From positions 1-64,000 of the IMG/VR virus record IMGVR_UViG_3300048818_000143: a DNA stretch of 64,000 bases. One strand, given 5' to 3'. The DNA comes from a virus. Both the position numbers and the translations under genes were made by a program. The notes beneath the pieces were generated by a model. The model searched no databases. It saw only the letters and a program-made list of their open reading frames with translations, and was not told the origin of the DNA. This document shows, one piece after another, positions 6,601 through 58,947 of this stretch. Within the stretch, counting starts at the first letter, position 1, and each line of letters begins with the position of its first letter.

Positions 6601-8263
6601 GAGTATTCGACCCCGTGGTGGTCGTAACCGCTGGCGCAAAGGGTGTCGTGGTCTCTCCGAAATGAGCGCCCCAATTAGGGCTGACCCAAGAGCCACACTG
6701 GAGTTTACCGTTAGTCGGCCAGTTGGTGTTGGGCACGACATAACAACCGCCCGGCGGTGTCGGAACATCCACCTCCTGTCCCGGAAGTCTCATCGCTGCC
6801 GCTAAATCGAAAGCAGGTTGATCGTTCGTAACGCAATCGCCCTTCGCGCCGAGAGTTACAACATTGATGGCGTTGTTCGAAGGAAGGGACGGCACCCACT
6901 GTGTTCCGTTGAATACCCATGTATCACCAGTGACCGGTGGCGTCGCCGATATCGGGGTTCCTTGAAATCCGACTACGGTACAAAGCCCGGGAACAGCAGT
7001 TGAGCACGAGATATCTCCCGTCAGCGTATAGAACGCGGGATCGAGCGGCCCTTGAATCAGGATCTGTCCCGTAGTTCCCGGATTCACGCCCGGTATCGCT
7101 GTGCCGTTGAAATTGATCGTACTGATGCCGATCCCGCCTAGCGGTGGATTTGTGATGGAGATGCCGCTTGATCCTGGACCTGTTGCCGCAACTCCCGTCA
7201 CCAGCGAGGCCGGCCCATTGTTTGCCGCCACGAGCTGCGAGAGATTCGCGCTAGTCGCATTCGGTATCTGGATGCGCACAGGTTGCCCGCTGCCCACCGT
7301 CAGGAAAACTACGAGTCCTTCCGGTACGTTTGTGGGGTTGGGCAGATTGCCGAAAGCGTCAGTGTTGACGGAGAACTTTCCCGCGGGAGTCAGCGAGCCG
7401 CCTTGATTCTGCAGCGAGTAAGTATCGAATACGACACGCTGGCTAATAGCCGGGCTGCCGTTTATTTTGAGCACGTTGCCGCCGACGTTGCAGACCGGAT
7501 TCGGGACTGGCGTCGGCGTTGCTGTCACCGTAGGAGTAGAGGTCGTTGTCGGGGTCGGAGTGACAGTCGGCGTCGGGCCGGTCGCCAAGAGCTCGATCTG
7601 CTCCGCGGCCCAATTCACGTTGCCCGAGGTGCCTGCATTGATATTGTTGGTATAAGTCCCCGAAAAGGGAATCGGCACGTATTCCTGCGCGACACCCGCA
7701 TTCGGCGTCGCCTGAGTATTCGTCACGTTGAACGCGGTCGTGAAAGTCATTGTGAGCGCCTGGTTGGTCCCCGCGCTCCATCCGAAATCCACCAGCAGCA
7801 TCGAGTTCGCGCCGGTTGTCGTGATTGGCGGCGCCGTCAAAGTATTACCCGCCGTTCCAAAATCGTTGGTCCCCGCGACTGCGCCCACTCCTACCGCGCC
7901 GGCGTATGTCGTGACGCCGCAAGCCTCGCCCGCATGACCTCCCGTAAAGGTGTAACTCGCAGGCTCGCTGCTCGCGACTCGATAGCAGAGTATCGATTGC
8001 ACGTTGGCGCTGGTTGATTGATCCTGGCGGACGAAGCTCCATCCCGTGGGACAATTCTGTGTCGGCGAACTGATGCTTTGGTCGACGTAGTGCCAGACCA
8101 TCAGGTTGCCGTTGGTGGTTCCAGTCGGCACGTTGCACGAGATCGGGGATGACGCCGCTGTGTTGTGCGCCGCGGCTACAAACGTGATCGCGGCATCGGC
8201 GCGCGCCGCGAAAAGTAGCAAGAGCGCGGCTATTAGGCTTGAGATTCTTCTTTTGTTTCGCAT
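3635..8263 (-). CDS. giant secreted beta-helix protein, tailspike/depolymerase-like (pectate-lyase superfamily motif)
   Basis: Uninterrupted 4.6-kb ORF; start taken at MRNKRRISSLIAALLLLFAARADA/AITF (Sec-like signal). PT linker at nt 7496-7579. The motif INVVTLGAKGDCVTNDQPAFDLA (nt ~6800-6868) matches the characteristic N-terminus of Pectate_lyase_3-type right-handed beta-helix domains of phage tailspikes. Gly/Thr/Asn-rich throughout. Confidence 0.75.
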   Translation of the reverse strand: MRNKRRISSLIAALLLLFAARADAAITFVAAAHNTAASSPISCNVPTGTTNGNLMVWHYVDQSISSPTQNCPTGWSFVRQDQSTSANVQSILCYRVASSEPASYTFTGGHAGEACGVTTYAGAVGVGAVAGTNDFGTAGNTLTAPPITTTGANSMLLVDFGWSAGTNQALTMTFTTAFNVTNTQATPNAGVAQEYVPIPFSGTYTNNINAGTSGNVNWAAEQIELLATGPTPTVTPTPTTTSTPTVTATPTPVPNPVCNVGGNVLKINGSPAISQRVVFDTYSLQNQGGSLTPAGKFSVNTDAFGNLPNPTNVPEGLVVFLTVGSGQPVRIQIPNATSANLSQLVAANNGPASLVTGVAATGPGSSGISITNPPLGGIGISTINFNGTAIPGVNPGTTGQILIQGPLDPAFYTLTGDISCSTAVPGLCTVVGFQGTPISATPPVTGDTWVFNGTQWVPSLPSNNAINVVTLGAKGDCVTNDQPAFDLAAAMRLPGQEVDVPTPPGGCYVVPNTNWPTNGKLQCGSWVSPNWGAHFGETTTPFAPAVTTTTGSNTLGGTNFSVTVILSTGFKANASIPIVFAGTGQKIFCGGAPTAGQLNNCNGGTGVIPANTSLFQSDVEGTVIYSTNTYGINNRFGCSPNGATPGSCQEGGDIEGCYFLGSGTDASSVNVTSLIQASTGGDRTTTATVASPLPVSSGALPIVIAGVGTTVNGNAGANACTPTALSESAGSTTLSLTTSLPSAIVNVASTTGFLTGSSMPIYIATLASFGTDPIYCTGVTSGAACTGGSGNCFTGCTGGTGQVLATAAVTQPNIVTATCSAPHGLLAGDQIISAGNTPSGYNSPAGNGWIVNTEDSTHITWISQNTGLGAGSGFGTIKDGNYNRTVLAKVVDSTHLTFPMGPFSDMGTGTGGTITPTTECLAIGDSTPGVSGGWAYQSGLNTDHVGAGNCGIGVSVFEQNATHRKMSIQGTHTCFYFDAPTNGTGGYDNDLTFDTLTCAGVGHIGVDAFNGMINGQIKGLDVEMVNATDPTAMMVAISGAQSESINNSYLEAVSNGTPVAFVGDAVVVRNYDATVGLNLDNDSILFNNGSHTDFHLIGGGLASAGFGGARITINHDQAYNNTVIEPGIFYSDIDATNLSNIFNNAPVTNGNKITYNGSQITPLAIGPAGIEPGQFVNGENLDLEQFASGNVMVTGQCLGSPGSFLRLYTPSFATPFNVDCDGGVASNKGFFGNGVTSGSFWIEPLAIAGATVIRPPSFSGPMAVLYQGVIGSAPACNSTNESQEGVATDCNATCANGATCTTGGSTHCPIYCNGSVWVEQGGSTALGNYLLNGSANTQSGAGIDMFDGYALATPTGQFIRLQDSTHTNTKFNIDYNGNLAATTLQIETGAYAFIAPAVAPVIGQVPVATSTANAPPVAAWTSLPATHALTGTTPVGVCNSATAPWVDVQTFANTASPTLMTLPCACASGEIMTWHIHQTSSGGTITLPSGTIGPFSTQNGSCTVVGVGTNCTLGVTQSPPSDLDANFQLDGTVWRLETCNPF

Positions 8264-37668: not shown

Positions 37669-38990
37669 AGCGAATCTCCCATCTCGGTCACGATGTCCTC
37701 GGGCTCGGGAATTCTACCGCCGAACGCAATGCCGTGTTTGGCGGCTTCTTTCACCGATTCGAGCAGGCTCGCGAACCCCGCCACGTTCGCATGGACGGGC
37801 AGGTCTTTGAGCGCGCCCAGATTCTTTTTCAGATGCGCAATCGCCGCTTCGACCGTGTTTCCGGCGCCGATTACCACGCCAGGCTCGCCGCTCTTGTCCG
37901 GCGCGAATTTATACACCCCGTCGACTTTGCCATAGCGATAGAGTTTCACCCAGCGCTCGACATTCTTCGGAATTCGCAGCGTGCGCCATTCTTTTACGAT
38001 CGAATCATGCTTCGCGCCGCCGTCAAAATGCAGCGTCGCTTCGACCGCAAACCGCCACCTAAACTCGGGCGGTATCACGATCCCGTTCGCGCCGTACCAG
38101 ATCACCTCCGCGAAGTTCGTGCAAGTCTCAAGCTGATGCTCTCCGGTCTGTCCGGGCATCCGCGGCGTCGGGTCGATGAAATAGGGCACGCCGTCTTTGA
38201 TACGAATCTCAGTCGCCCACCAGCCCCGATAACCAAAACTCTTGAGCACCGGAGCCATCTTCTCGTTGACGATCTTGATTTCGTCGGGTAGGTCATCTGC
38301 GCTGAGTTCGGATCCTAAGTAGAGCTCGTTCTTTTTCTCGTAGCCCTGAAACGACGACGGTGGGTATTGCCCATCGATGCACCAGCCATCGTAACCGATT
38401 TCCAAGTCGGACTTGAGGTTGTCCTGCACGACGAAAATAACGATTTCCTTGGCGCCGCCGAAAATGACGGCGAGGTCGTCCAGGTAGTCTTCGCTGTGCT
38501 CGTAGTCGAGATGGTGCCAGGTCTCCATGTTCGCGCGGAACGCGTTAATTTTGATCCACTTGTTCTCGACTTTCTTGAGATGCGCGCGCAGCGCCGTGAG
38601 CCCCAGAATCGTTTCCGAGTGGACCGTCTCCAGCCCCACGCTTTCGAGCACTTCTAAAAATTGGTCCCGATAGAGCTCGAGGCTGGTCGCGCCCATGTGC
38701 CCCCACACGGCTTTCCCGATCCTGCGCAAATGCCGCTGCATGTCGCCGTAGCCGATGTCGGGAAACACAAAGAGGTCGACGTTATCGAGGACTTTGGGGT
38801 TCAGGAATTCGTCGATCTTCTCAACGTTGTCGAGGCCGTAGCCGCGCATGAAGTCCGAGATGTCACGGTATTCAGCCTCGCACGGCGAGTAGTAGTAGAC
38901 CTTCTTACACGTCTCCGCGAGCTTTTCAGCGACGCTTATAAACGTGCCGTAGTCGACCACGCAGGCCGTCACTTCTTCGACCGACTTCAT
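37665..38990 (-). CDS. ATP-grasp fold enzyme (441 aa)
   Basis: The C-terminal half (FGYRGWWATEIRIKDGVPYFIDPTPRMPGQTGEH) matches the ATP-grasp pattern G..G....E.....G.PY.IE...R.GG. The preceding KWIKINAFRANMETWH... fits the central domain. It overlaps the portal stop by 4 nt. Confidence 0.6.
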   Translation of the reverse strand: MKSVEEVTACVVDYGTFISVAEKLAETCKKVYYYSPCEAEYRDISDFMRGYGLDNVEKIDEFLNPKVLDNVDLFVFPDIGYGDMQRHLRRIGKAVWGHMGATSLELYRDQFLEVLESVGLETVHSETILGLTALRAHLKKVENKWIKINAFRANMETWHHLDYEHSEDYLDDLAVIFGGAKEIVIFVVQDNLKSDLEIGYDGWCIDGQYPPSSFQGYEKKNELYLGSELSADDLPDEIKIVNEKMAPVLKSFGYRGWWATEIRIKDGVPYFIDPTPRMPGQTGEHQLETCTNFAEVIWYGANGIVIPPEFRWRFAVEATLHFDGGAKHDSIVKEWRTLRIPKNVERWVKLYRYGKVDGVYKFAPDKSGEPGVVIGAGNTVEAAIAHLKKNLGALKDLPVHANVAGFASLLESVKEAAKHGIAFGGRIPEPEDIVTEMGDSL

Positions 38991-41176
38991 TGATCCTTGC
39001 CACCGCCGCCTTTATCGACTGGTTGCCGCATCGTGTCCCAGATATCGGTCGCTTGCGTAGCCATGTCCATCGCGTGTTGGCCTTGATCCATCCCGTGCTG
39101 GCCTTGCGCGCGCTTTTCCTCGCGCGACTTCGTAAGCCCGTCCATGATGAGCTTGAGCATGTCGGTGCCGCTCTGACCGGACAGTCGCTTCGCCTTCGCC
39201 ATTTCGAGCTCGGCGCGAGCGTTCTTTTCTGCGACTTCCGCCTGAATCTGGATCGGCCCCTTCTGCTGGCCCCGACCGCCCGGCACCGGCAACCCAGCCT
39301 CGCGCAGTTTCGCCATCTGCTGCGCTTCGTCGGTCATGGCTTTTTCGATCGCCATCGCCCAGGTCCGCGGTATCGGCAGCGCGCGCACGAACATTGGCAG
39401 GAACTTGTTCATCCGGAGTAGCGTCTGTCCGAACGGTCCGAGCAGGAGATCCGCTAGGTACTGCTTCATGTTCGGATCGCGCTCGGCTTCATCGAGCGAA
39501 ATTTCATACTCCAGCGAGAAAGGCGCGTCCTCGAGTTTGATCACCTCGCCTTCCTGTGAAGCCGGGCCACCCACCCGAATCAGCCGCGAGTCGGAAATGA
39601 GCTGAAGGTGATCGTAAACGATCATCCCCTCTTCCTGGCGCCAGTCCTCTTCGGCGTCGAACTCGGCCGCGAGCAGGACCATCCCCGCGCGCTGCTTGCG
39701 CTTGAGAGTCACGCCGGATGTGCCGCTCCCGCCTAGCCCGAGCGTCTCCGCGTTGATGCCTGTGATAGTATCGCCCATCGCCGAGATGACGAACTGCATG
39801 ATCGCCATCGCAGCGGCGGGCACTTCCGGCTGCTGCTTGGGAATAATTTTCTTGTTCTGAATCGCGCCGTCGCCAACGACGTTGATAGAGCCTGTCATCG
39901 AAGCGGTATCGATAAAGTCCTGGAGCTGCGCCTTATCGTCGAATGCTGTTACTTCTGCGAGGTAGCCGCCCTTGGCCTGCTTCGCGAAACTCTCCAGCAT
40001 CTGGTTGAAAAACTTGTTGATGTAGCGGTTCGGGTCGAGCATCACCTTCGCGAATCCGTAAGCCAGCTTCGATTCCTCGTCGAAGTGACAGCAAACCGGA
40101 TTGAAGGTGAAGCGCGAGCCAGGCAGATGCTCCGGCGCTTCCATCAAAAAGCGCCGATTCAGTACGAACGCATGCTTGTAGTGCCTGCCTATCTGTCTAT
40201 CGAAGTGCTCGATTTCGAGGTCGAATAAGTTTTGGAGGCGGGTTTCGTACTCGCGAAACTCCCCTTCATCCATGAATTGCTCGGTATTATCCAGCGGATC
40301 TTCGAAGACGTAGCCCGCCTGGTTGTCCCACCATTCGAACTCGAGCAGCCGCGACTGGTCTTTCTTCCCAACGCTATTGGCCTTGAGTTTGTCCAGCGGG
40401 TAACTCTGCACGTAGGGGATTTTGTACGGGACGCGATCGACTGACGGCCAGCTCAGCGCCTTGCCCTCGGCGCTCGCATAGTCGATCAGAAAATGCGCGT
40501 CTTTCGAAGGGAACAGCGCCTTGATTTCCTCGTTCTCAATCCACGCCTCTCGCGCGCGCCACCGGCAATGCTCGGCGTCCAAGTTAATTTCCGCGCACCC
40601 GTCCGGCCACAACATCTCCATCGGATCGATGCGGTCGTAACCCACGAGGCCGCGAGGGTCTTTCGCCCGGGAGATGAAGCACTTCGTCCACCCCATTCCC
40701 GTGATCAGAAAGTCGTTAAAAGCGCGGCTTCGCTTATTGTTCGCGTGGGACATTTTCGTGGCCCACTCGAAGTATTTCTGGACGCGATCGCCGAAAAGCT
40801 GCGCCTGGTCGTTATCCATGCTCACGGCGTTGAACAGGAGCGCCAAATACGAATCGCGTTGCACGCCCGAGATGTAACGAATGAATTTCTGAGTCGTGTT
40901 GAATGCGTTGTGCGGGCGTCGCTGCTCTTTCAGCACCCGCTCGTCTTCATCTGAGAGCTGGCGTCCCGCGATGAAGCGCTGGCACTCGCGTCCGTCCGTG
41001 CGCCATTTGTTGCACTTGGGCTCGGCTTTCTGGACTTGGCGCAGTATCCACGGCAGCTTCGGATGCCCCATGAGACCGACCGCACCCGCTGGCTCCGAGC
41101 CCGTATCGGTGAAGCGCGGGACCGGGATGGTCGCGATGTCTCGGGTACTTTCGTTGAAAAGATTTTCTACCGCCAC
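38987..41176 (-). CDS. portal protein (729 aa)
   Basis: Size, position immediately downstream of the large terminase, and an acidic/helical C-terminus. Consistent with N4-like portals by length. Confidence 0.75.
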   Translation of the reverse strand: MAVENLFNESTRDIATIPVPRFTDTGSEPAGAVGLMGHPKLPWILRQVQKAEPKCNKWRTDGRECQRFIAGRQLSDEDERVLKEQRRPHNAFNTTQKFIRYISGVQRDSYLALLFNAVSMDNDQAQLFGDRVQKYFEWATKMSHANNKRSRAFNDFLITGMGWTKCFISRAKDPRGLVGYDRIDPMEMLWPDGCAEINLDAEHCRWRAREAWIENEEIKALFPSKDAHFLIDYASAEGKALSWPSVDRVPYKIPYVQSYPLDKLKANSVGKKDQSRLLEFEWWDNQAGYVFEDPLDNTEQFMDEGEFREYETRLQNLFDLEIEHFDRQIGRHYKHAFVLNRRFLMEAPEHLPGSRFTFNPVCCHFDEESKLAYGFAKVMLDPNRYINKFFNQMLESFAKQAKGGYLAEVTAFDDKAQLQDFIDTASMTGSINVVGDGAIQNKKIIPKQQPEVPAAAMAIMQFVISAMGDTITGINAETLGLGGSGTSGVTLKRKQRAGMVLLAAEFDAEEDWRQEEGMIVYDHLQLISDSRLIRVGGPASQEGEVIKLEDAPFSLEYEISLDEAERDPNMKQYLADLLLGPFGQTLLRMNKFLPMFVRALPIPRTWAMAIEKAMTDEAQQMAKLREAGLPVPGGRGQQKGPIQIQAEVAEKNARAELEMAKAKRLSGQSGTDMLKLIMDGLTKSREEKRAQGQHGMDQGQHAMDMATQATDIWDTMRQPVDKGGGGKDQ

Positions 41177-41188
41177 AGCCGCACCCCA

Positions 41189-42697
41189 CTACAACGCTGA
41201 TTCCCAAGTTCCAATTTGCGGACGCTTGCGATCTAGCATACGCGCTTCCAATTCCGCTGGCGCGGTCGGGTATCGAATGCCCAGTTCGGGTTCTTGCAGC
41301 CTGGTCATCATGTCCAGGAAGTCGTCGTGATCGATCGAGTTGTCGCCGGCGTACTCCAGATATTCCCGATTTACGAAGTAATCAACGATGTTCTGCGGCT
41401 CGTCCTCGCCCAAGTCGATCATCGGCATCTGGATCATGTCGGTGTCGGGGATGCAGATTATTCCCTCGCGGAACATCGGAATCAGGCCCTCGATGCGGGT
41501 TTCTTTCGAAAGCATGTGGCGTGGCCCGCGGCGCCCGACCGGAATCGGTTTGAGGTTCACGCCCGCCTTTTTTAGCTCGCGCTCCAAAAACCACGCATCC
41601 CGGACCATCCCGTACTCTTCATAGAGCCACCGCACCGGCCGCCACTTTCGTATCAACCGGATGTGCTCGCGCGCGTTGTCGTCGAGGTCCAGGCGTCCCA
41701 CCACGCCATCGACCAGCAGCAGCCGCTTTTCCGGCGTCGCTACGAAAACTCCTATGACCGTAGGATCGGATTTCGGATCCTCGCCTTTCGAAGGGTCGGT
41801 GAGCATGTAGGCCGGGAATTTCAGCGGCATGACGCGCTTTTTGTAAAAAGTCAGCCATTCGAACTTGAAGCGGCGCCCCTGATTCGCGTCGGGGTTTTGC
41901 TGATAAAGCGCGTTCCAGGTCCGCAAGTCTTTCTTGTTCGCGCGATACCACGGCTCTCCGAAGCGCTCGGGCCAGAGGAACTCGCCAGGCTGTCTATCCA
42001 GCGGATCGTCGGCCTCTGCCTCGGCAGGTACCCTGAGCACATGCCAGAGACCACCGTTCTCGGCCGTACCCTCTTCCTCGATCACGCGATCGAAAAAGTC
42101 ACCGCGGCACCAGCGCGTGAGGCACATCAGCCGCGAGCCGCCCTCGAGCCGGGTTCTCACCGTCGAGCGATAATCCTCGAAGCGCGAAAGCATCGTCGCC
42201 TCGGATTTCGCCTCGTTCATGTTTTTGATTGGGTCGTCGATGTCCAGCACGCCGTCGACGCCGGCGCCGGTGATGGTCCCGTTGAAGCCGGCAGAGAAAA
42301 ATTCGCCGCCCTTAGTGGTCTGGAAGTAGCTGCCACTGCGCGCGAACTGCGAAAGCTTGCACTCGGGGAAAGCTTCCTTGTGAACGTCGCCGGTTATGAG
42401 CGTCAGAATTTTGCGGCCGAATCTTTTGGCGAAGCGATCGGAGTAGCTGATCAGCATGTTCTTGCGCTCGGGAAAGCGCCCGAAACACCATGCCGTGAAA
42501 TTGATGCTCGCAACCTCGCTCTTCGCGTGCCGCGGCGGCATCAGGATCGCCAGCGCCTTGATTTCGTGGGTAGCTACTCGATGGAGCGCCGGTACAACGA
42601 AGTCCTGGTGAAAGCTCACCCATCCGTAGCTGGGGTTGGCCTTGAGCAAAAAGGCTCCCATGTTATTCCGCACAAGGTTGATGGTCTTGGCGTCCAT
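41189..42697 (-). CDS. terL: terminase large subunit
   Basis: 502 aa. Walker A-like ILMPPRHAKSE, Walker B-like GVLDIDDP, and a C-terminal nuclease-like region (LTDPSKGEDPKSDPTVIGVF). The antisense 362-aa ORF is Arg-rich. Confidence 0.85.
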   Translation of the reverse strand: MDAKTINLVRNNMGAFLLKANPSYGWVSFHQDFVVPALHRVATHEIKALAILMPPRHAKSEVASINFTAWCFGRFPERKNMLISYSDRFAKRFGRKILTLITGDVHKEAFPECKLSQFARSGSYFQTTKGGEFFSAGFNGTITGAGVDGVLDIDDPIKNMNEAKSEATMLSRFEDYRSTVRTRLEGGSRLMCLTRWCRGDFFDRVIEEEGTAENGGLWHVLRVPAEAEADDPLDRQPGEFLWPERFGEPWYRANKKDLRTWNALYQQNPDANQGRRFKFEWLTFYKKRVMPLKFPAYMLTDPSKGEDPKSDPTVIGVFVATPEKRLLLVDGVVGRLDLDDNAREHIRLIRKWRPVRWLYEEYGMVRDAWFLERELKKAGVNLKPIPVGRRGPRHMLSKETRIEGLIPMFREGIICIPDTDMIQMPMIDLGEDEPQNIVDYFVNREYLEYAGDNSIDHDDFLDMMTRLQEPELGIRYPTAPAELEARMLDRKRPQIGTWESAL

Positions 42698-44121: not shown

Positions 44122-44194
44122 AGCTGGCGGCGGGAATCGAACTCGCGACCTCTGGTTTACGAAACCAATGCTCTACCGTCTGAGCTACACCAGC
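44122..44194 (-). tRNA. tRNA-Thr (anticodon CGT)
   Basis: The reverse complement GCTGGTGTAGCTCAGACGGTAGAGCATTGGTTTCGTAAACCAGAGGTCGCGAGTTCGATTCCCGCCGCCAGCT folds by hand into a cloverleaf. It has a 7-bp acceptor stem, GCTC/GAGC D-stem, anticodon loop TTCGTAA, and a TTCGATT T-loop with one mismatch in the T-stem. Confidence 0.85.
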
Positions 44195-44203
44195 ATAAGT
44201 TAG

Positions 44204-44275
44204 ATGCGCCGGTGGGATTTGAACCCACGATCTTCTGGTTATGAGCCAAATGAGATGCCACTTCTCCACGGCGCG
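44204..44275 (-). tRNA. tRNA-Met (anticodon CAT) with bacterial initiator (fMet) hallmarks
   Basis: The reverse complement is CGCGCCGTGGAGAAGTGGCATCTCATTTGGCTCATAACCAGAAGATCGTGGGTTCAAATCCCACCGGCGCAT. It shows a C1xA72 mismatch, an A11:U24 pair, a CUCAUAA loop and a GGTTCAAATCC T-arm, closely echoing E. coli tRNA-fMet. Only two of the three G:C pairs at the bottom of the anticodon stem are present. No encoded CCA. Confidence 0.8.
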
Positions 44276-49358: not shown

Positions 49359-49611
49359 GGGAGGCAAAATATGAATCAGTTTCTGACCCTCGTTACTCTG
49401 ACCGCCGTCTATTTATCGTGGCGCGCGCAAACACCATTCAGGAGCATGACTCGCCGTGCCTTCCTCGTGATGAATGGGTGGACGGTGAAGCCATGAACCA
49501 GGCCGACGAATTTTTCGCTCGACGGCGCGCACGCATCAAATGGATCTGCTTTTGGTGCGTGGGCGCTTATGCGCTATTCCTCGTAGCTGCTCTGGTGGAG
49601 GGCTTCATTCG

Positions 49612-49911
49612 ATGACAACTCTAAAAGCACAGCTATTCTCTAAAGAGCAGATCACGGAATGGCTTTCGGCCGTCGACCCTGCCGTTCTTCAAGCGTCCCT
49701 CTCTGACGCCTCCGCACGAGCTAGCCAGCGTGTCGACTGGCTGAATGCGAACAATGGACCGGCAACGATCGAATGGCTGCGCTACGTGCTCAAAAAAGAG
49801 GGCGGAATAGAAACTCCCCCTATTACTATCGACCACGTCCAGCTCATTCTTATCATGGAGTATTTTTTAGAAAACAACTTCGACAAGATGATCGAGGATT
49901 TAAGCAAGTGA
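49612..49911 (+). CDS. hypothetical protein (99 aa)
   Basis: Internal ATG (MTTLKAQLFSKEQITEW...), immediately upstream of the AAA+ gene. Confidence 0.5.
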   Translation: MTTLKAQLFSKEQITEWLSAVDPAVLQASLSDASARASQRVDWLNANNGPATIEWLRYVLKKEGGIETPPITIDHVQLILIMEYFLENNFDKMIEDLSK

Positions 49912-49913
49912 AG

Positions 49914-51416
49914 ATGACAGATTCTCTCAAACGCGCGCGCGCGGTAGGCGTGCCGATCGTTGCGATTACTACGCAAGATCAGCCGAACACCGTGGCGCAA
50001 ATTGCCGGCGCTCTTAACGGCTCGATGCCTCTTCTATGCTGGGATGTGGTCCGCGGCTATTCGCCGCTGAATGAGCCCGGAATCGACGCCAAGGCGAAGA
50101 TTCTCGAAAAGCACGATGAGATGGGGCTAACCAATTTCGCCGAGGCGCTTATAGCGGCGCTCGAATTGCCCGAACGGTCGATACTGATTTGTTTCAACGC
50201 GCATCGATTCTTAGATGACCCGGCGCCGTGCCAAGCTTTGATGAACCTGCGCAATCTCTTCAAGAATTCGCAACGCACAATCGTTCTCCTGGCGCCAGGC
50301 TTTTCGCTGCCGGCCGAGCTCGCCCAGGATGTGCTTTTGCTCGATGAACCGCTCCCATCTGAGGATGAGATCCGCGTCTCATTTGGGAAGCTGGCGACTG
50401 AGAACGAGCTAGCGATGGAAGATGACACGCTCGAGCGCGCGACTGATGCGTTGCGAGGGCTGGCCGCGTTTGCCGGCGAGCAAGCGAGTGCGCTTTCTAT
50501 CCAGGCTGACCGTAGCGTTTCACTTCCTGAATTGTGGGCGCGCAAAAAAGCGATGCTTCCGAAGGGCCTCGAGCTCGAATATCCGTCTCAAACTTTCGAT
50601 GACATCGGCGGCGCCGTGGCCGTGAAAGCGTTCTTCAATCAGCTAGGCGCCGGGCCTCGCAAGTTTCGTGTCGTGATTATCATAGACGAAATCGAGAAGC
50701 TGGTGGCCGGCGCTGGTGGCGACTCTGGTCTAGGCGACAGCTCCGGCACGTCTCAAGATGCAATGGCCGTGCTTCTAACTGAGCTCGAAGACCGCGACTA
50801 TTTCGGGATCACTCACTTCGGACCTCCGGGAACCGGGAAGACTTACACCGCGCGCGCGATCGCTGCGACGTTCGGGCTTCCGTGCGTCAGGATGGATACG
50901 GGCGCGATGAAAGGGCGGTATGTTGGTGACAGCGAAGGCGCAATCAGAGCGGCGCTTAAAGCGATTTATGCGCTGGCCGGCGATGGCGGCGCTTTGATCG
51001 TCGCGACTACTAACCAGTTTGGATCGTTGCCGACTGCGTTACGCGATCGACTCGCCAAGCTGGGGGTTTGGTTCTATGACCTGCCAACAGCGGCCGAGCG
51101 TAGCGCGATCGCGAAACTCCAGGCCAAGCATTATGGACTGAAGGCGAAAGACGCCGCGGCATTCTTCGAGCCGCTCGAGGGCTGGTCTGGGCGCAACATC
51201 CGCAATTGTTGCGAGCTGGCCCAGGCGCTGGCGTGCGACTTCGCCGAGGCGTCAAAATACGTTATCCCGCAGGCGCAACAAGAGCCCGCGGGCCTCGAGC
51301 GCTTGCGCAAGATGGCGGAGGGTCGGTTTCTATCGGCTAGCACGCCAGGCGTCTACAAGGCCGCGCGCGTTAAAGAGTCTCTAACTCCAGAATCAGGAAG
51401 GAAGGTAAATCTATGA
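49914..51416 (+). CDS. AAA+ ATPase, Ycf46-like N-terminal domain, with Walker B block preceding Walker A block
   Basis: 500 aa from MTDSLKRARAVGVPIVAITT. The N-domain pattern (..PLLCWDVVRGY....ILICFNAHRFLDDP...LRNLFKNSQRTIVLL.P....P.EL...VLLLDEPLP) resembles cyanobacterial/plastid Ycf46. VVIIIDEIEK + GDSSGTSQDAMAVLLTELE lies at nt 50670-50780. GPPGTGKT is at nt 50820-50843. Sensor-1-like LIVATTN is at nt 50994-51014. Confidence 0.8.
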   Translation: MTDSLKRARAVGVPIVAITTQDQPNTVAQIAGALNGSMPLLCWDVVRGYSPLNEPGIDAKAKILEKHDEMGLTNFAEALIAALELPERSILICFNAHRFLDDPAPCQALMNLRNLFKNSQRTIVLLAPGFSLPAELAQDVLLLDEPLPSEDEIRVSFGKLATENELAMEDDTLERATDALRGLAAFAGEQASALSIQADRSVSLPELWARKKAMLPKGLELEYPSQTFDDIGGAVAVKAFFNQLGAGPRKFRVVIIIDEIEKLVAGAGGDSGLGDSSGTSQDAMAVLLTELEDRDYFGITHFGPPGTGKTYTARAIAATFGLPCVRMDTGAMKGRYVGDSEGAIRAALKAIYALAGDGGALIVATTNQFGSLPTALRDRLAKLGVWFYDLPTAAERSAIAKLQAKHYGLKAKDAAAFFEPLEGWSGRNIRNCCELAQALACDFAEASKYVIPQAQQEPAGLERLRKMAEGRFLSASTPGVYKAARVKESLTPESGRKVNL

Positions 51417-51853
51417 GTCACATCGTTAAGATCGCGATCGAAGTTAAAGACCTCGACGCATTGGCGGCCGCGGCGCGCGCGTTGGGCCTCGAGCTGATGC
51501 GCGGACAGCGCACTTACAGGCATTACGGCGCGCACGAGGCGCAGACCGGGCTTCCCGAGGGCTTCACGATGAAAGACTTGGGACAGTGCGAGCACGCGCT
51601 GCGCATCGTCGGTGCCGACAAGGAGGCTTGCGAGATTGGCATCGCGCGCCGGCGCGACGGTCGACCGGGCTATGTCCTGCTGGCCGACATGTTTAGTTAT
51701 GGGCAGCTGCCCGAACACGTGGGCGCGAACTGCGAAAAGCTCAAGCAGAACTACTCAAGCGAAGTTGCGCGCCGCACGCTCCAAAAGCAGGGCTATCGAG
51801 TCACTTCCGCAACTAAGGCCGATGGTCGCATCGTCCTGCAGGCGACACGATGA
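51413..51853 (+). CDS. DUF1257 (Ycf35-like) family protein (146 aa)
   Basis: MSHIVKIAIEVKDLDALAAAARALGLEL ... EIGIARRRDGRPGYVLLADMF ... LKQNYSSEVARRTLQKQGYRV....DGRIVL fits the remembered DUF1257 consensus. 4-nt overlap with the AAA+ gene. Confidence 0.6.
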   Translation: MSHIVKIAIEVKDLDALAAAARALGLELMRGQRTYRHYGAHEAQTGLPEGFTMKDLGQCEHALRIVGADKEACEIGIARRRDGRPGYVLLADMFSYGQLPEHVGANCEKLKQNYSSEVARRTLQKQGYRVTSATKADGRIVLQATR

Positions 51854-52032
51854 GCGAAACAATCACAGTGGAAATCGAGCTCGATGGTTCCTCGACGGTC
51901 TCCGTCGCAGGCGTCAAAGGGAAACGTTGTAAAGACATCACGCGCCAGGTTGAGGCGGCGCTTGGTAAAGTCACGGCCGACACGCCGACAGGGGAGATGG
52001 CACAACGTGAAACCGTTAAAGCTGCTAATTGA
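51850..52032 (+). CDS. DUF2997-like small protein (60 aa)
   Basis: ITVEIELDGSSTVSVAGVKGKRCKDITRQVEAALGKV fits the remembered DUF2997 pattern (I.I..DG.V...V.G..G..C...T..lE..LG.V). 4-nt overlap with the upstream gene. Confidence 0.55.
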   Translation: MSETITVEIELDGSSTVSVAGVKGKRCKDITRQVEAALGKVTADTPTGEMAQRETVKAAN

Positions 52033-52276
52033 AACGACTGGCGAAGTCACCGCGATTTATAGCGATGCTCTCGCCGACCTATGCGACGAGGGCGCCGCGA
52101 CTATCACGCGCGCGTCTCATGTCGAGCCCGTTGTGCTCGAAAATCCGGCCGGCGAGGTGGAAAGCGGATGGGCTGCGACTATGAACAACGGGATCATGAT
52201 CGGACCTTTTCGGCTGCGCCAAACGGCGCTTGACGCCGAGGTTGATTATCTCGAAAGGATACTACTAGGTCTCTAA
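52007..52276 (+). CDS. hypothetical conserved phage protein (89 aa)
   Basis: GTG start inside the end of the previous gene. The motif ITRASHVEP...W.A.M..G...GPFRLRQTALDAEVDYLE is reminiscent of a recurrent small phage family. Confidence 0.45.
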   Translation: MKPLKLLIETTGEVTAIYSDALADLCDEGAATITRASHVEPVVLENPAGEVESGWAATMNNGIMIGPFRLRQTALDAEVDYLERILLGL

Positions 52277-52307: not shown

Positions 52308-53219
52308 ATGGCTGAGTCAAATATCATGGATCGCTGCGTTCTGCTCCAGGTCTCCGTTTCAAGCTTTGGAGTCAAGCGCAAGCTGCCGACCTCGAAGATA
52401 GACGCCGGCGACGCCAATAAAACCTTTCTGCACGTATCGAAGGACTTGATCAAGTCCGAGCGCTACACCGCGATCAGGAAGGCTGACGGGGATTTCCGCA
52501 CGTGGCTGACCTCGCGCTGTCTACCGTCGCTGTTCAAAGAGGGTATTTACTTACTGCCGATCGACTTGATCGAAGAGGTGGACGCCGAGATCCAAAAGTA
52601 CACCGCTGCGCGCCAGGAGCGGATTGATCGGTTTCTCGAGGAATACCCGGACAAGCGCGACGAGGCGGAAACCGAGCTGGGTTCATGCTTCGATGCTTCG
52701 CAGTATCCCGAGCCGATGGCCGTGCGCGCGACGTTCGGAGTAGTCACCCGGTATCTGTCATTCTCGACGCCAGGCAACTTACGGGGAATCAATAAAGACA
52801 TTTTCGATCGCGAGACTCAGAAACTCAAAGAGACGATCGCGAGCGCTCAGGAGGAGATTCAAACCGTGCTCCGCGCCGGGTTTTCGGAGCTCGTTACCCA
52901 TCTGATCGACAGGCTCTCACCGGATGCCACAGGTAAGCAGAAGGTGTTTCGCGACTCGTTGATCGGGAACGTCCGCGACTTCATGGCTAACTTTGCGGCG
53001 CGCAACATTACCGATGACGCAGAGCTAGCGGCGCTGGTCGATCAGGCGCGCGAGATTATCGAAGGCGTCGACCCTCAGACGCTGCGCGACCATAGGGGCG
53101 TTAGAAACACCGTGCGCGAAGCGCTGGCCGACGTGAAATCAACCCTCGATGAAATGCTGGTAGACAAGCCAGGCCGCAAGATCGCTTTCGAAGACATGCA
53201 GGGAGAGGCTACCGCATAG
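52308..53219 (+). CDS. DUF3150-like protein (303 aa)
   Basis: The N-terminal VLLQVSVSSFGVKRKL....ID and the later LLPIDLIEEVDAEIQKYTAARQERIDRFLEEYP resemble the DUF3150 pattern (from memory). GGAGAA RBS. Confidence 0.55.
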   Translation: MAESNIMDRCVLLQVSVSSFGVKRKLPTSKIDAGDANKTFLHVSKDLIKSERYTAIRKADGDFRTWLTSRCLPSLFKEGIYLLPIDLIEEVDAEIQKYTAARQERIDRFLEEYPDKRDEAETELGSCFDASQYPEPMAVRATFGVVTRYLSFSTPGNLRGINKDIFDRETQKLKETIASAQEEIQTVLRAGFSELVTHLIDRLSPDATGKQKVFRDSLIGNVRDFMANFAARNITDDAELAALVDQAREIIEGVDPQTLRDHRGVRNTVREALADVKSTLDEMLVDKPGRKIAFEDMQGEATA

Positions 53220-53255: not shown

Positions 53256-53471
53256 TCAACCCTCGAGCACGCCGCTGCTCGGGGGTTTTTCTTTGACCTT
53301 CAGACAAACAGCAATCGGATAACCTTGCACCCACCGCGCCAGACCTCGCGGCTTATCTTCAAGTTGCTTCGGAATTGAATTTGCTTCGGCTCGCGCCTTA
53401 CGACTGGAAGCCCGCAGCATCTCGCGGATACGTTCGCCGTGTCGTGCAGCCTCATCGACTTTGAATTTCAT
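53256..53471 (-). CDS. hypothetical small basic protein (71 aa)
   Basis: Start at MKFKVDEAARHGER, with GAGG 5 nt upstream. Last gene of the minus-strand recombination block. Confidence 0.45.
   Translation of the reverse strand: MKFKVDEAARHGERIREMLRASSRKARAEANSIPKQLEDKPRGLARWVQGYPIAVCLKVKEKPPSSGVLEG
53260..53294 (+). terminator. rho-independent terminator at a convergent junction
   Basis: CCCTCGAGCA (53260-53269), loop CGCCGC, TGCTCGGGGG (53276-53285; one G.U pair), then TTTTTCTTT. It overlaps the 3' end of the convergent minus-strand ORF. Confidence 0.6.
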
Positions 53472-56914: not shown

Positions 56915-57787
56915 TCAAAAGATTTCACGGTCAGCAGCGAGCCTCCGGACTGTCGTTGAGATAGATGCCGCTACTGAGCGTGGCTTTTTCTCATCGTATC
57001 CCGCCTTGTACGCGCGGCTAATCTCTATCCCGCAGCCCGAGACTTTCGCGTAGTTTTTACAAAATCCGCGCAAGCCAGCGACGATGTGCTTTTGCTTCGA
57101 CTCTGAGATGGCCCGTTCAGCGTACAAGATATCCGCCATCTCGAACGCCCAGGACTCGAATTCCTCGCCGTCGAGCTCGATCGCGCCTTCGGGTTTCGGC
57201 CAATCTTTCGTCTGGACGCGATTCCAGAACTCGAGGATCTCGGGAGCAATGCTTTTCTCCCACCATTCGATATCGAATCGGACGGGGATTATCACGAGCT
57301 CGCCGCGGAAGTAGCAGCCATAATCCGCCTCTTCCGTCTCCGTGATGAAAAGCTGCGTCATGATTTGAGCCATGTAGTGCTCGGGGATATGCCCCTCTTT
57401 CGCCTGGCGGAAGGTTCCAGCCTCGATCGGGCATTTCAACTCGACGGGCCGGTTGATTTCGTGGCGCCAGCCGTCGAGCGAGCACATGAGGAACTCCCAG
57501 CCCGGCCGCGTGCATTCGACTACCAGAGGATTTACCGCGTCTCCGACTTCGATCGCGTAGGCGATCCGCGCTTCGTCTTCGGTGTCGTGGCCGTGCTTGG
57601 TGGCTTCGTGGGTGCCGGACTTCGAATTCTTCTGGCCGGACTTCTCGAGGAACAATCCAAAAGGGCCGCTGACGCCTTTGAATGGGTCCGTCATGAGAAT
57701 TACCGGCACGTCTGAGGCTCCGATGTGATCGGCGCGGATTTTATGCCAAGCCTCGCTATTCTGCTCTACGTCGATAATCTTCGGCAT
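56915..57787 (-). CDS. YqaJ-type (lambda-Exo-like) recombination exonuclease (290 aa)
   Basis: Start MPKIIDVEQNSEAWHKIRADHIGASDVPVIL is the YqaJ N-terminal signature, and forms an ATGA overlap with the annealing-protein gene stop. Confidence 0.75.
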   Translation of the reverse strand: MPKIIDVEQNSEAWHKIRADHIGASDVPVILMTDPFKGVSGPFGLFLEKSGQKNSKSGTHEATKHGHDTEDEARIAYAIEVGDAVNPLVVECTRPGWEFLMCSLDGWRHEINRPVELKCPIEAGTFRQAKEGHIPEHYMAQIMTQLFITETEEADYGCYFRGELVIIPVRFDIEWWEKSIAPEILEFWNRVQTKDWPKPEGAIELDGEEFESWAFEMADILYAERAISESKQKHIVAGLRGFCKNYAKVSGCGIEISRAYKAGYDEKKPRSVAASISTTVRRLAADREIF

Positions 57788-58947
57788 CAGCCCTGAGCCT
57801 CTTTCGCCTTTTTCTGCGATTCCGCTTTGCCGCTCATAATCTTGATCAGCGCGTCGGCCTGCTTCGCCGCGATGTCGGCTTTGCGCGTCTTCCACAGATC
57901 CGCGAACGATCCTTCAGCCGGCAGCGAGAACATCTTGAGGAACATAGCCTTGCCTTCGGCGCGCTTCGCATCGTCCGGATATTCGACCGAGGCGAACGTC
58001 TTATCGATCTGCTCCAAAAGCGTACCGTCTGCCTGGCTCGAATCTGCCGTTGCTTGCGCTGCGCCGCCCGTAGCGCCCGTTTCGGCCTGCTTCGGGGGTC
58101 TTCCCTTGCGTTTGGCCGGCTCGCCGCCTCCTGAGCCTTCTTCTTTCTTGTCGTCGGAACCGTGAAACGTGTCGGCAGGATCGTCACGCTTGCCCTCGAC
58201 TTCGGGAGATTCTTCGTCGAAGATCGCCGACGCGCCGGTTACGAGCCGCACCGCTGCGACTAGACAACGCTTCTCGGCGATTCGAATGACCGTGTTGAAC
58301 TGATCTGGCACGTCGAGATTCGGCACCCGTCCGACTTCTTGACCTTCGATTTCCTTTGCACCATCGGACCACTTGTGACCGCAGCCGCCCTTTTTGGCGA
58401 AACACAGCCAGCCGCCACCGTATTCAGCCTTGCCCTTGATAATCGCGTCCTTTCCGCATTCCGGACATTTCCGGCCGGCTTGACGCCACTGGTACTTGCT
58501 TTCGAACGTCGAACAGATCGCCGATGCTCCACCGAGTCGCCCGCCGCTGACCTGCGAATAAAGCGTGCAGTAGCGCTTGACCAGAAGGTGGCGCATTTTC
58601 TCGCCCTTGTCCGTGGTCTCGGTGATGAATTGCTCGGAATTGCCATCGCCTGAGAACTGCGCGTCGAGATTGAACAGCACGCAGAGCTTCTCCGCGCCCG
58701 GCTTCAAAAGCGTCGGCTTCGAAATATCCTTGCCGTCTTTGTCCTTGCGCTCAGTGCCGGGGATCACGCCGTAGTCGATATTCGGCTTCATCGCGTCGCG
58801 CTGAACTTCGATGATCTTGTCGAGCCGCGCTTTTATTTCTTCCGCGGTACGCTCCTCCGCGCGCACAATCTGTCCCGTCTCGCGTAGCGCTACTTCGCGG
58901 GAATTGTTATGAGGTTCATCCGTAACAATTTCGACTTCTTTCGACAT
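57787..58947 (-). CDS. putative single-strand annealing protein (RecT/Redbeta-like) with inserted Zn-ribbon (386 aa)
   Basis: Immediately upstream of, and coupled to, the YqaJ exonuclease. NIDYGVIPGT....KPTLLKPGAEKLCVLFNL resembles SSAP cores. An inserted CPECGK...CFAKKGGCGHKW is present, and the C-terminus is acidic/Gly-rich. AAGGAG RBS. Confidence 0.55.
   Translation of the reverse strand: MSKEVEIVTDEPHNNSREVALRETGQIVRAEERTAEEIKARLDKIIEVQRDAMKPNIDYGVIPGTERKDKDGKDISKPTLLKPGAEKLCVLFNLDAQFSGDGNSEQFITETTDKGEKMRHLLVKRYCTLYSQVSGGRLGGASAICSTFESKYQWRQAGRKCPECGKDAIIKGKAEYGGGWLCFAKKGGCGHKWSDGAKEIEGQEVGRVPNLDVPDQFNTVIRIAEKRCLVAAVRLVTGASAIFDEESPEVEGKRDDPADTFHGSDDKKEEGSGGGEPAKRKGRPPKQAETGATGGAAQATADSSQADGTLLEQIDKTFASVEYPDDAKRAEGKAMFLKMFSLPAEGSFADLWKTRKADIAAKQADALIKIMSGKAESQKKAKEAQG

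Follow-up and report, generated by a model that had tools for sequence, protein, structure and literature searches.

An AAA+ ATPase with exchanged Walker A and Walker B blocks in a conserved phage gene module

Results

The ATPase gene and the order of its motifs

The window analyzed here is a stretch of 64,000 nucleotides (nt) of an uncultured phage genome (positions 1 to 64,000 of IMG/VR virus record IMGVR_UViG_3300048818_000143). As part of a five-gene module it contains a gene for an AAA+ ATPase whose Walker B block lies ahead of the Walker A block. AAA+ and other ASCE-type P-loop ATPases are regarded as having a constant succession of Walker A, Walker B and sensor 1, and they are recognized by motif-order rules and by colinear profiles. 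The ATPase gene is located on the + strand at 49908..51416 and was identified from the list of open reading frames (ORFs) and by its match to Pfam AAA (PF00004; 67.7 bits versus a cut-off of 21.2). The reading frame is unbroken from 49914 to 51416, and it codes for 502 amino acids (aa) if translation starts at the GTG at 49908 or for 500 aa if it starts at the ATG at 49914. The GTG is more probably the start of the gene; it forms a GTGA overlap with the upstream stop codon, GAGGA is found 9 nt upstream of it, and the independent gene call in a Logan assembly of the same phage is also of 502 aa, two codons earlier than ATG 49914. Residue numbers are counted here from ATG 49914.

The N-terminal domain (aa 1-215; 49914..50558) consists of an alpha/beta part and a helical part, as deduced from the secondary structure of an AlphaFold2 (AF2) model, and lacks Walker motifs. 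It is followed by a linker with helix alpha0 (aa 216-252; 50559..50669), which includes FDDIGG (aa 228-233); in the swapped clade the strand that comes next is that of Walker B and not beta1. Block B comes next (aa 253-298; 50670..50807), with strand beta3 and Walker B (VVIIIDEIEK, aa 253-262, nt 50670-50699, its VVIIIDE part including D258 and E259), a Gly/Ser-rich loop at the position of pore loop 2, and helix alpha3. Block A (aa 299-359; 50808..50990) is found only after it and comprises beta1, Walker A (GPPGTGKT, aa 303-310, nt 50820-50843, including K309), alpha1, beta2, pore loop 1 (KGRYVG, aa 333-338) and alpha2. Strand beta4 with sensor 1 (ALIVATTN, aa 360-367, ending in N367), helix alpha4 with the Arg fingers (R377, D378, R379) and strand beta5 occupy 50991..51089, and the last part of the gene (51090..51416) codes for a helical lid with a GWSGxxI motif (aa 423-429) and a C-terminal tail, according to the AF2 helices at 393-468 and to the profile match described below. 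An initial annotation, made from the DNA letters and their ORFs, had read Walker B before Walker A before sensor 1 in one continuous frame; the motif positions and the profile tiling agree with that reading, and the nucleotide ranges it had assigned to the two blocks agree with the motif positions in the ORF.

The match to Pfam AAA was split in two stretches, the best of them covering profile positions 2-53 only, and sequence matches of the ATPase in the PDB (VCP, Cdc48, katanin and others) were restricted to block A (aa 298-350).

Exchange of two homologous blocks

A normal-order profile was built from 121 relatives in which Walker A comes first, and the ATPase matched it in four non-colinear pieces. 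The N-domain and linker (aa 3-243) corresponded to profile positions 5-241 with 120 bits, the Walker B block (aa 252-295) to 308-349 with an expectation value (E) of 8.5e-9, the Walker A block (aa 298-355) to 250-307 with E 2.1e-16, and sensor 1, lid and tail (aa 359-489) to 351-478 with 84 bits. These pieces tile the protein and the profile once each, leaving 2-8 residues unmatched at the three junctions. In both flanks (aa 3-243 and 359-489) the order of the profile is kept, and only the internal part (aa 252-355) is rearranged. Since the four pieces are statistically supported, this result points to an exchange of two homologous blocks and not to a chance motif match.

When the blocks were exchanged in silico (preceding part X, aa 299-359, aa 253-298, following part Y), one colinear match was obtained that spanned profile positions 5-478 and scored 316 bits, versus 274.6 bits for the native sequence. 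The unswapped sequence also outscored the native one against 122 out of 122 normal-order relatives, with a mean of 175.5 versus 132.4 bits. The NCBIfam profiles CDC48, FtsH and PAN matched about 185 colinear residues in the normal-order proteins P0059 and P0101 and only 45-50 residues, those of block A, in the query; it is because of the swap that standard profiles cover only about 50 residues of the swapped proteins. These comparisons indicate that within a single AAA domain two neighbouring segments have traded places, with nothing duplicated or lost.

Distribution and phylogeny of the swapped order

A first database search retrieved 46 proteins of this ATPase type (45 full-length proteins with 36-54% identity and one fragment with 97%), together with a few distant relatives. 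Block-specific hidden Markov models (HMMs) located Walker B first in all 46 of these homologues and in 147 out of 147 further representatives of 50%-identity clusters. These representatives were taken from an exhaustive profile search, which for the whole family gave about 4,000 matches at E<=1e-30 and in which match number 150 still reached 585 bits in a single colinear stretch. The nearest normal-order protein was P0047, with 27% identity; the 122 relatives gathered around it, together with P0049 and P0050, all carry Walker A first.

Two genome collections were scanned in addition. In IMG/VR, 260 viral contigs contained a relative, and the 80 loci that were kept were swapped without exception (80/80). 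The scan of one genome per prokaryotic species, seeded with a 12-sequence alignment, revealed 51 normal-order loci and 29 swapped loci, the latter in metagenome-assembled genomes (MAGs) that include Acidobacteriota, Myxococcales, Armatimonadota, Nitrospirales, Gemmatimonadetes, Planctomycetota and Verrucomicrobiota. The swapped form is also encoded by a cultured phage, Tunturiibacter phage Tunturi_3 (gp103; 33.8% identity). The window phage itself has been assembled twice independently, in a Joint Genome Institute (JGI) metagenome (65,218 nt) and in the Logan assembly (65,121 nt). According to the initial annotation, homologues in normal order would have pointed to an assembly rearrangement in this DNA; the close homologues are not in normal order, and the swap is shared by a total of 193 proteins and 109 further loci.

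A neighbour-joining (NJ) tree of 190 swapped and 121 normal-order sequences, calculated from 387 alignment columns outside the swap, separated the two groups with a bootstrap support of 93/100. The same split was recovered at 74/100 from the core formed by blocks A and B. The breakpoints are alike in all members examined, as the block HMMs tile them alike. The split fits a single old event.

Predicted fold

The AF2 model of the ATPase, obtained with the 46-sequence alignment, had a mean predicted local distance difference test score (pLDDT) of 92.4 and a predicted template modelling score (pTM) of 0.85. Between aa 235 and 390 every core element, that is five strands and the helices, is present once, and the lid is present as well. 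Along the chain, helix alpha0 (235-245) is followed by beta3 (253-257), assigned as a paired strand with pLDDT 96, and, after a flexible loop at the pore-loop-2 position, by alpha3 (279-294); then come beta1 (297-302) and the P-loop, alpha1 (309-319), beta2 (324-327) and alpha2 (339-355), and finally beta4 (360-366), alpha4 (374-380), beta5 (385-387) and the helical lid.

Foldseek searches of the PDB aligned the whole model to two-ring AAA proteins (Rix7, p97, NVL and Drg1) over about 590 columns, with a query TM-score (TMq) of about 0.5. Because of this alignment, the N-domain is most likely a degenerate, AAA-like first domain. Among viral models, the best matches were proteins named 'ycf46' from uncultured Caudovirales and from Pseudomonas phage SM1 (TMq 0.64-0.71). 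An HMM of the N-domain matched 122/122 normal-order relatives, and this domain is thus common to both orders.

The core sheet of AAA+ proteins has the strand order 5-1-4-3-2, with all strands parallel. In a sheet of this kind the new connections of the swapped protein would lead from alpha0 to beta3, from alpha3 to beta1 and from alpha2 to beta4. As the starts of beta1, beta3 and beta4 would be neighbours along the same edge, the new connections would each be shifted by one or two strand positions only, and with unchanged crossover directions the crossovers would stay right-handed and the helices on their usual faces. This arrangement, deduced from the 5-1-4-3-2 sheet, would explain why the swap is tolerated and why junctions of 2-8 residues suffice.

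Conservation of catalytic residues

Residue conservation was counted over 190 swapped proteins. Walker A residues G306 and K309, Walker B E259, sensor-1 N367 and the Arg finger R379 were each found in 190/190, and position 258 was D or E in all of them. The pore-loop-1 signature K-G-x-[L/Y]-V-G-x-S-E is also retained. The Gly preceding the Walker A Lys is replaced by Ala in 46/190 members, and position 378 is Arg in 182/190. Since the Lys, Glu, Asn and R379 are invariant among sequences that differ in half or more of their residues, selection for catalysis is suggested. The swapped ATPase should be functional, with ATP bound and hydrolyzed at a normal inter-subunit site.

Two observations concern individual members. 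The query and its 97%-identical homologue P0001 carry Asp at position 378 (window 51045-51047), the sole Asp in the set, and they keep R377 and the invariant R379. Two swapped members, P0264 (861 aa) and P0203 (896 aa), contain inteins; in one case the Walker A loop is interrupted (GPPG|C...HN|SGKS), and in the other the intein is inserted at sensor 1 (...FIAT|C...HN|CNS). Inteins typically sit in essential active-site motifs.

The five-gene module

Four genes follow the ATPase gene on the + strand. The first one (51413..51853) codes for a DUF1257 (Ycf35-like) protein of 146 aa, and its ATGA start overlaps the ATPase stop codon. Its match to Pfam PF06868 was marginal (22.5 bits versus a cut-off of 22.2); BLASTP supported the assignment better, with E 1.6e-36 to 6e-9 to neighbours of homologous ATPases and E 2.4e-20 to L006_145, which itself has a PF06868 match. 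The second gene (51850..52032) overlaps the first one by 4 nt, again as ATGA, and codes for a DUF2997 protein of 60 aa that clearly matched Pfam PF11211 (43.1 bits versus a cut-off of 24.1; profile positions 1-46 of 47). Both the 4-nt couplings between these three genes and the DUF1257- and DUF2997-like identities, as proposed in the initial annotation, are thereby borne out, and so is its statement that the trio recurs in bacterial and phage genomes, as it was seen in IMG/VR, MAG and cultured-phage loci. Its three-gene cassette of AAA, DUF1257 and DUF2997 genes was right in these members and too short by two, those for an 89-aa protein and a DUF3150-like protein.

The 89-aa protein is encoded at 52007..52276 from a GTG start. 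It is conserved but lacks a family assignment: no Pfam, NCBIfam or PADLOC match was obtained, and it was recognized by BLASTP to same-position small ORFs in loci L002, L005, L007 and L006 (E 5e-14 to 5e-9) and by an independent gene call of 89 aa. Its gene shares 26 nt (52007-52032) with the 3' end of the DUF2997 gene, in another frame; in L002 the overlap is of 32 nt (7023-7054), and the overlap itself may be conserved.

The last gene of the module (52308..53219) codes for a DUF3150-like protein of 303 aa, identified by BLASTP to proteins downstream of homologous ATPases; all types of locus that were compared contained such a homologue (E 9e-60 to 3e-36). No Pfam match at E<=0.1 was obtained for the window protein itself. 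Its homologue L007_303 (BLASTP 9e-60) matched PF11348 (59.9 bits versus a cut-off of 24.9; E 3.2e-16), a domain also carried by four database homologues (P0329, P0333, P0336 and P0341). In the AF2 model of the DUF3150-like protein (pLDDT 86.7, pTM 0.75) a small sheet is packed on very long helices, and the model found no fold match in the PDB (best E 0.59). The protein annotated as 'HNH endonuclease' in Tunturi_3 (gp96; L001:7684-8643) is homologous to the window's DUF3150-like protein (BLASTP E 8e-48), and this annotation is probably wrong. A strong terminator-like hairpin with a 12-bp stem and a following T run was located by consensus scan on the + strand at 53258..53287, 39 nt past the last gene, and probably ends the transcription unit.

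The partners were also counted in the 80 IMG/VR loci, some of which are truncated because the contig ends there. The partner that accompanies the ATPase most regularly is the DUF3150-like protein (75/80), followed by DUF2997 (71/80), DUF1257 (62/80) and the 89-aa protein (35/80); all matches lay on the ATPase strand, and almost all adjoined the ATPase. Module partners also accompany normal-order relatives. This is the case in the phage-like contig L007, which has the identical gene order, in the chromosome of Pirellula staleyi, in many Planctomycetota loci, and in the cultured phages Aeromonas HJ05 and Rhodobacter RcTiptonus. Since both orders share these partners, the module is older than the swap.

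Two further observations were made on genes adjoining the ATPase gene. In the loci carrying P0007, a gene for an HNH endonuclease of 257 aa lies between the swapped ATPase and DUF1257 genes (L002:5558-6331 and L003:4289-5062). In the window, the ORF at 49540-49911, directly upstream of the ATPase gene, is translationally coupled to it, its stop codon overlapping the probable GTG start; this ORF had no family match, and no homologue was detected upstream of the ATPase in seven other loci.

Possible function of the module

By analogy with other classic-clade AAA proteins, the ATPase may be regarded as a hexameric protein-remodelling motor, and the four partner proteins would most likely be its cofactors, adaptors or substrates. 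In the PHROGs database the ATPase belongs to phrog_8638, and the two small partners belong to families of unknown function; none of the partners has a function assigned there. The DUF2997 protein (51850-52032) gave only non-significant matches in the PDB, to chains of ribosomal protein S3 and polynucleotide phosphorylase (E 0.18 and 0.72), which are a weak hint at most. A known anti-phage defence system, among them those of IetA/IteA and TRIP13, was considered and rejected: the ATPase gave only short P-loop matches (PADLOC <=31.5 bits; NCBIfam IteA 34.2 versus a cut-off of 510), and none of the four partners matched a PADLOC or NCBIfam defence model.

DUF2997, DUF1257 (ycf35) and fed7 form a conserved cluster in cyanobacteria (PMC4284462). 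Ycf46 of Synechococcus elongatus has been described as an AAA ATPase that interacts with KaiC; its gene lies in an operon of three genes that is induced by stress, and the protein has been linked to circadian timing and to carbon concentration (bioRxiv 10.1101/2025.07.21.665879). A literature search of incomplete coverage yielded no function for DUF1257, DUF2997 or DUF3150.

Discussion

The best explanation of these results, which we hold to be highly probable, is that the window encodes a functional, Ycf46-like ATPase of the classic AAA+ clade, with a degenerate AAA-like N-domain and one active AAA domain in which two adjacent core segments have been exchanged. The normal arrangement is alpha0, then beta1-Walker A-alpha1-beta2-pore loop 1-alpha2, then beta3-Walker B-pore loop 2-alpha3, then beta4; in the swapped proteins the segment from beta3 to alpha3 would come directly after alpha0, and the segment from beta1 to alpha2 would separate it from beta4. 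The swap would thus amount to a circular permutation of an internal segment of 107 residues with both flanks unmoved. As to its origin, it can be conjectured that this segment was duplicated in tandem and that the first and the last halves were then lost, a course of events that agrees with the exact tiling. At the breakpoints the DNA contains only short GC-rich repeats, which are chance matches, as would be expected if the event is old.

Several points weigh against this explanation or against parts of it. Among 343 proteins no intermediate with the order A-B-A-B was present, and only unrelated two-ring AAA proteins had two A or two B blocks. The NJ samples had been collected around two queries, so that the tree shows the separateness of the two groups and not strictly a one-time event. 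AF2 may favour known folds, and the strand order used here is the established order of the AAA+ sheet; a PDB sequence search retrieved no solved structure of a Ycf46-like protein. For all members, activity is predicted from sequence. With respect to the module, the DUF1257 and DUF2997 counts come from iterated profiles that rose with iteration and had not levelled off, so that some drift is possible, and PDB sequence searches with DUF1257, DUF2997 and a DUF3150-like profile gave neither a significant match nor a functional clue.

Four other explanations have to be considered. Because metagenome contigs can be chimeric, one could imagine that the sequence was misassembled, or that a recent rearrangement confined to this contig broke the gene. 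Nothing in the results favours this view, and its probability is practically negligible, since the same order occurs in 193 proteins (36-54% identity, one 97%) and in 109 loci from unrelated samples, so that the homologue survey refutes an artefact; moreover, the phage was assembled twice independently, the frame is continuous and the catalytic residues are invariant. The two motifs might also derive from two tandem, partly degenerate AAA domains, Walker B from the first and Walker A from the second, so that nothing would be permuted. The full-length Foldseek alignment to two-ring AAA proteins does show that an AAA-like N-domain exists. However, this domain (aa 1-215) is built of separate strands and a separate helical part, and it is found unchanged in the normal-order relatives. 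Block B corresponds to profile positions 308-349, which follow the Walker A block within a single normal-order domain. The four pieces cover the profile once and the AF2 model contains a single copy of each core element at aa 235-390; this tiling and element count ruled out the placement of the Walker motifs in separate domains, a refuting case named in the initial annotation, and we consider it very improbable.

Slightly more room, though still little, is left for the swapped protein being an inactive pseudo-ATPase that lost catalysis through the swap and is kept as a scaffold. This would be in line with the Ala before the Walker A Lys in 46/190 members and with the replacement of one Arg of the finger pair by D378 in the query. 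Against it stands the finding that 190 diverse sequences keep the Lys of Walker A, the Glu of Walker B, the Asn of sensor 1 and R379 without exception, which fits selection for catalysis, and also the insertion of inteins in the P-loop and at sensor 1. Finally, the swap could have arisen several times, or genes could have recombined with one another, with no internal duplication and subsequent loss involved. Phage genomes recombine frequently and no duplication intermediate was seen, but the breakpoints coincide in all members examined and the tree outside the swap separates the two orders with 93/100, which argues against several origins; we regard this last alternative as unlikely.

The Ycf46-like AAA+ proteins (SpoVK/Ycf46/Vps4 group, known from cyanobacteria, plastids, Planctomycetota, Myxococcota and phages) are the closest known system. 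They share with the swapped clade the N-domain, the DIGG linker, the lid and the C-terminal tail, all catalytic motifs and the pore-loop-1 signature, and the neighbours DUF1257 (Ycf35), DUF2997 and DUF3150. They differ in that the 122/122 normal-order relatives have Walker A first, whereas the blocks are exchanged in the swapped clade; the name Ycf46-like is taken here from UniProt and JGI labels of relatives. As judged from this comparison, the swapped ATPase would work in the manner of the Ycf46-like classic AAA+ ATPases from which it descends, and it departs from them only in the order of the core elements. Two-ring AAA proteins (p97/Cdc48, Rix7/NVL, Drg1/Afg2) gave the best full-length fold matches in the PDB, and their second domain shares the classic-clade motifs. 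In contrast to them, the ATPase has an N-domain without Walker motifs and a permuted second domain, and its sequence similarity is limited to block A.

Reordered motifs are known in other enzymes. Circularly permuted GTPases (YlqF/YawG, YjeQ/RsgA, YqeH) have the motif order G4-G5-G1-G2-G3; they likewise represent a natural, family-wide reordering of P-loop NTPase motifs, in their case with fold and activity kept. However, they belong to the TRAFAC class and the whole domain is permuted, so that the termini move, whereas in the ASCE-type AAA+ protein described here only an internal segment is affected and the flanks stay in place. Circularly permuted GTPases are also mentioned in PMC6912228. 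Non-terminal permutation is much rarer than circular permutation of a whole domain. An internally permuted palm with the motif order C-A-B was reportedly described for viral RNA-dependent RNA polymerases by Gorbalenya and co-workers in 2002, a work cited in PMC13548321. Those polymerases reportedly also have a catalytic motif relocated inside a conserved core, in a viral lineage and with the active site kept, and they differ from the swapped ATPase in fold, chemistry and host range.

The swap has rewired a very conserved enzyme fold; the change is old and has been tolerated. Beyond this, we think it probable, though with some reservation, that these proteins are the first naturally occurring AAA+ (ASCE-type P-loop) ATPases to be recognized as a lineage with Walker B ahead of Walker A, brought about by an internal, non-terminal segment exchange, that the lineage is fully functional and has at least several hundred diverse phage-borne members, and that it originated once, inside an older five-gene module. 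A literature search of incomplete coverage gave no earlier description of an AAA+ or P-loop ATPase whose Walker B comes first, and this absence is not a proof. The large, conserved swapped clade would mean that the AAA+ core sheet tolerates rewiring, and it would provide a clean natural case of non-terminal permutation. If so, it is also a natural experiment: swapped and normal-order forms exist with the same partners, and this would allow a direct test of the influence of chain connectivity on AAA+ mechanics. In the swapped form, for instance, the N-domain would feed into the strand of Walker B and pore loop 2 and not into that of the P-loop. For folding and mechanistic studies, matched proteins of both orders are available, and one host-phage pair, that of Tunturiibacter phage Tunturi_3, is in culture. 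The five-gene set likewise extends the earlier three-gene cassette of ATPase, Ycf35/DUF1257 and DUF2997.

Phage genome around the module

The window contains genes for a large terminase (41189-42697) and a portal protein (38987-41176), both on the - strand. A search among GenBank phages gave no near relative, and known terminases share no more than 35% identity with that of the window. Two adjacent tRNA genes, for tRNA-Thr(CGT) (44122-44194) and tRNA-Met(CAT) (44203-44275), are also located on the - strand, and a 42-nt stretch of the latter is 95% identical to a tRNA-Met of Caulobacter phage BL57. Downstream of the module, a gene for a YqaJ-type exonuclease and an adjacent gene for a 386-aa protein (56915-58947, - strand) may act together in recombination as a pair. 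Near the exonuclease gene there are also genes of the DUF559 and HNH_3 types, one of each, according to Pfam matches marked on an independent annotation of the same phage.

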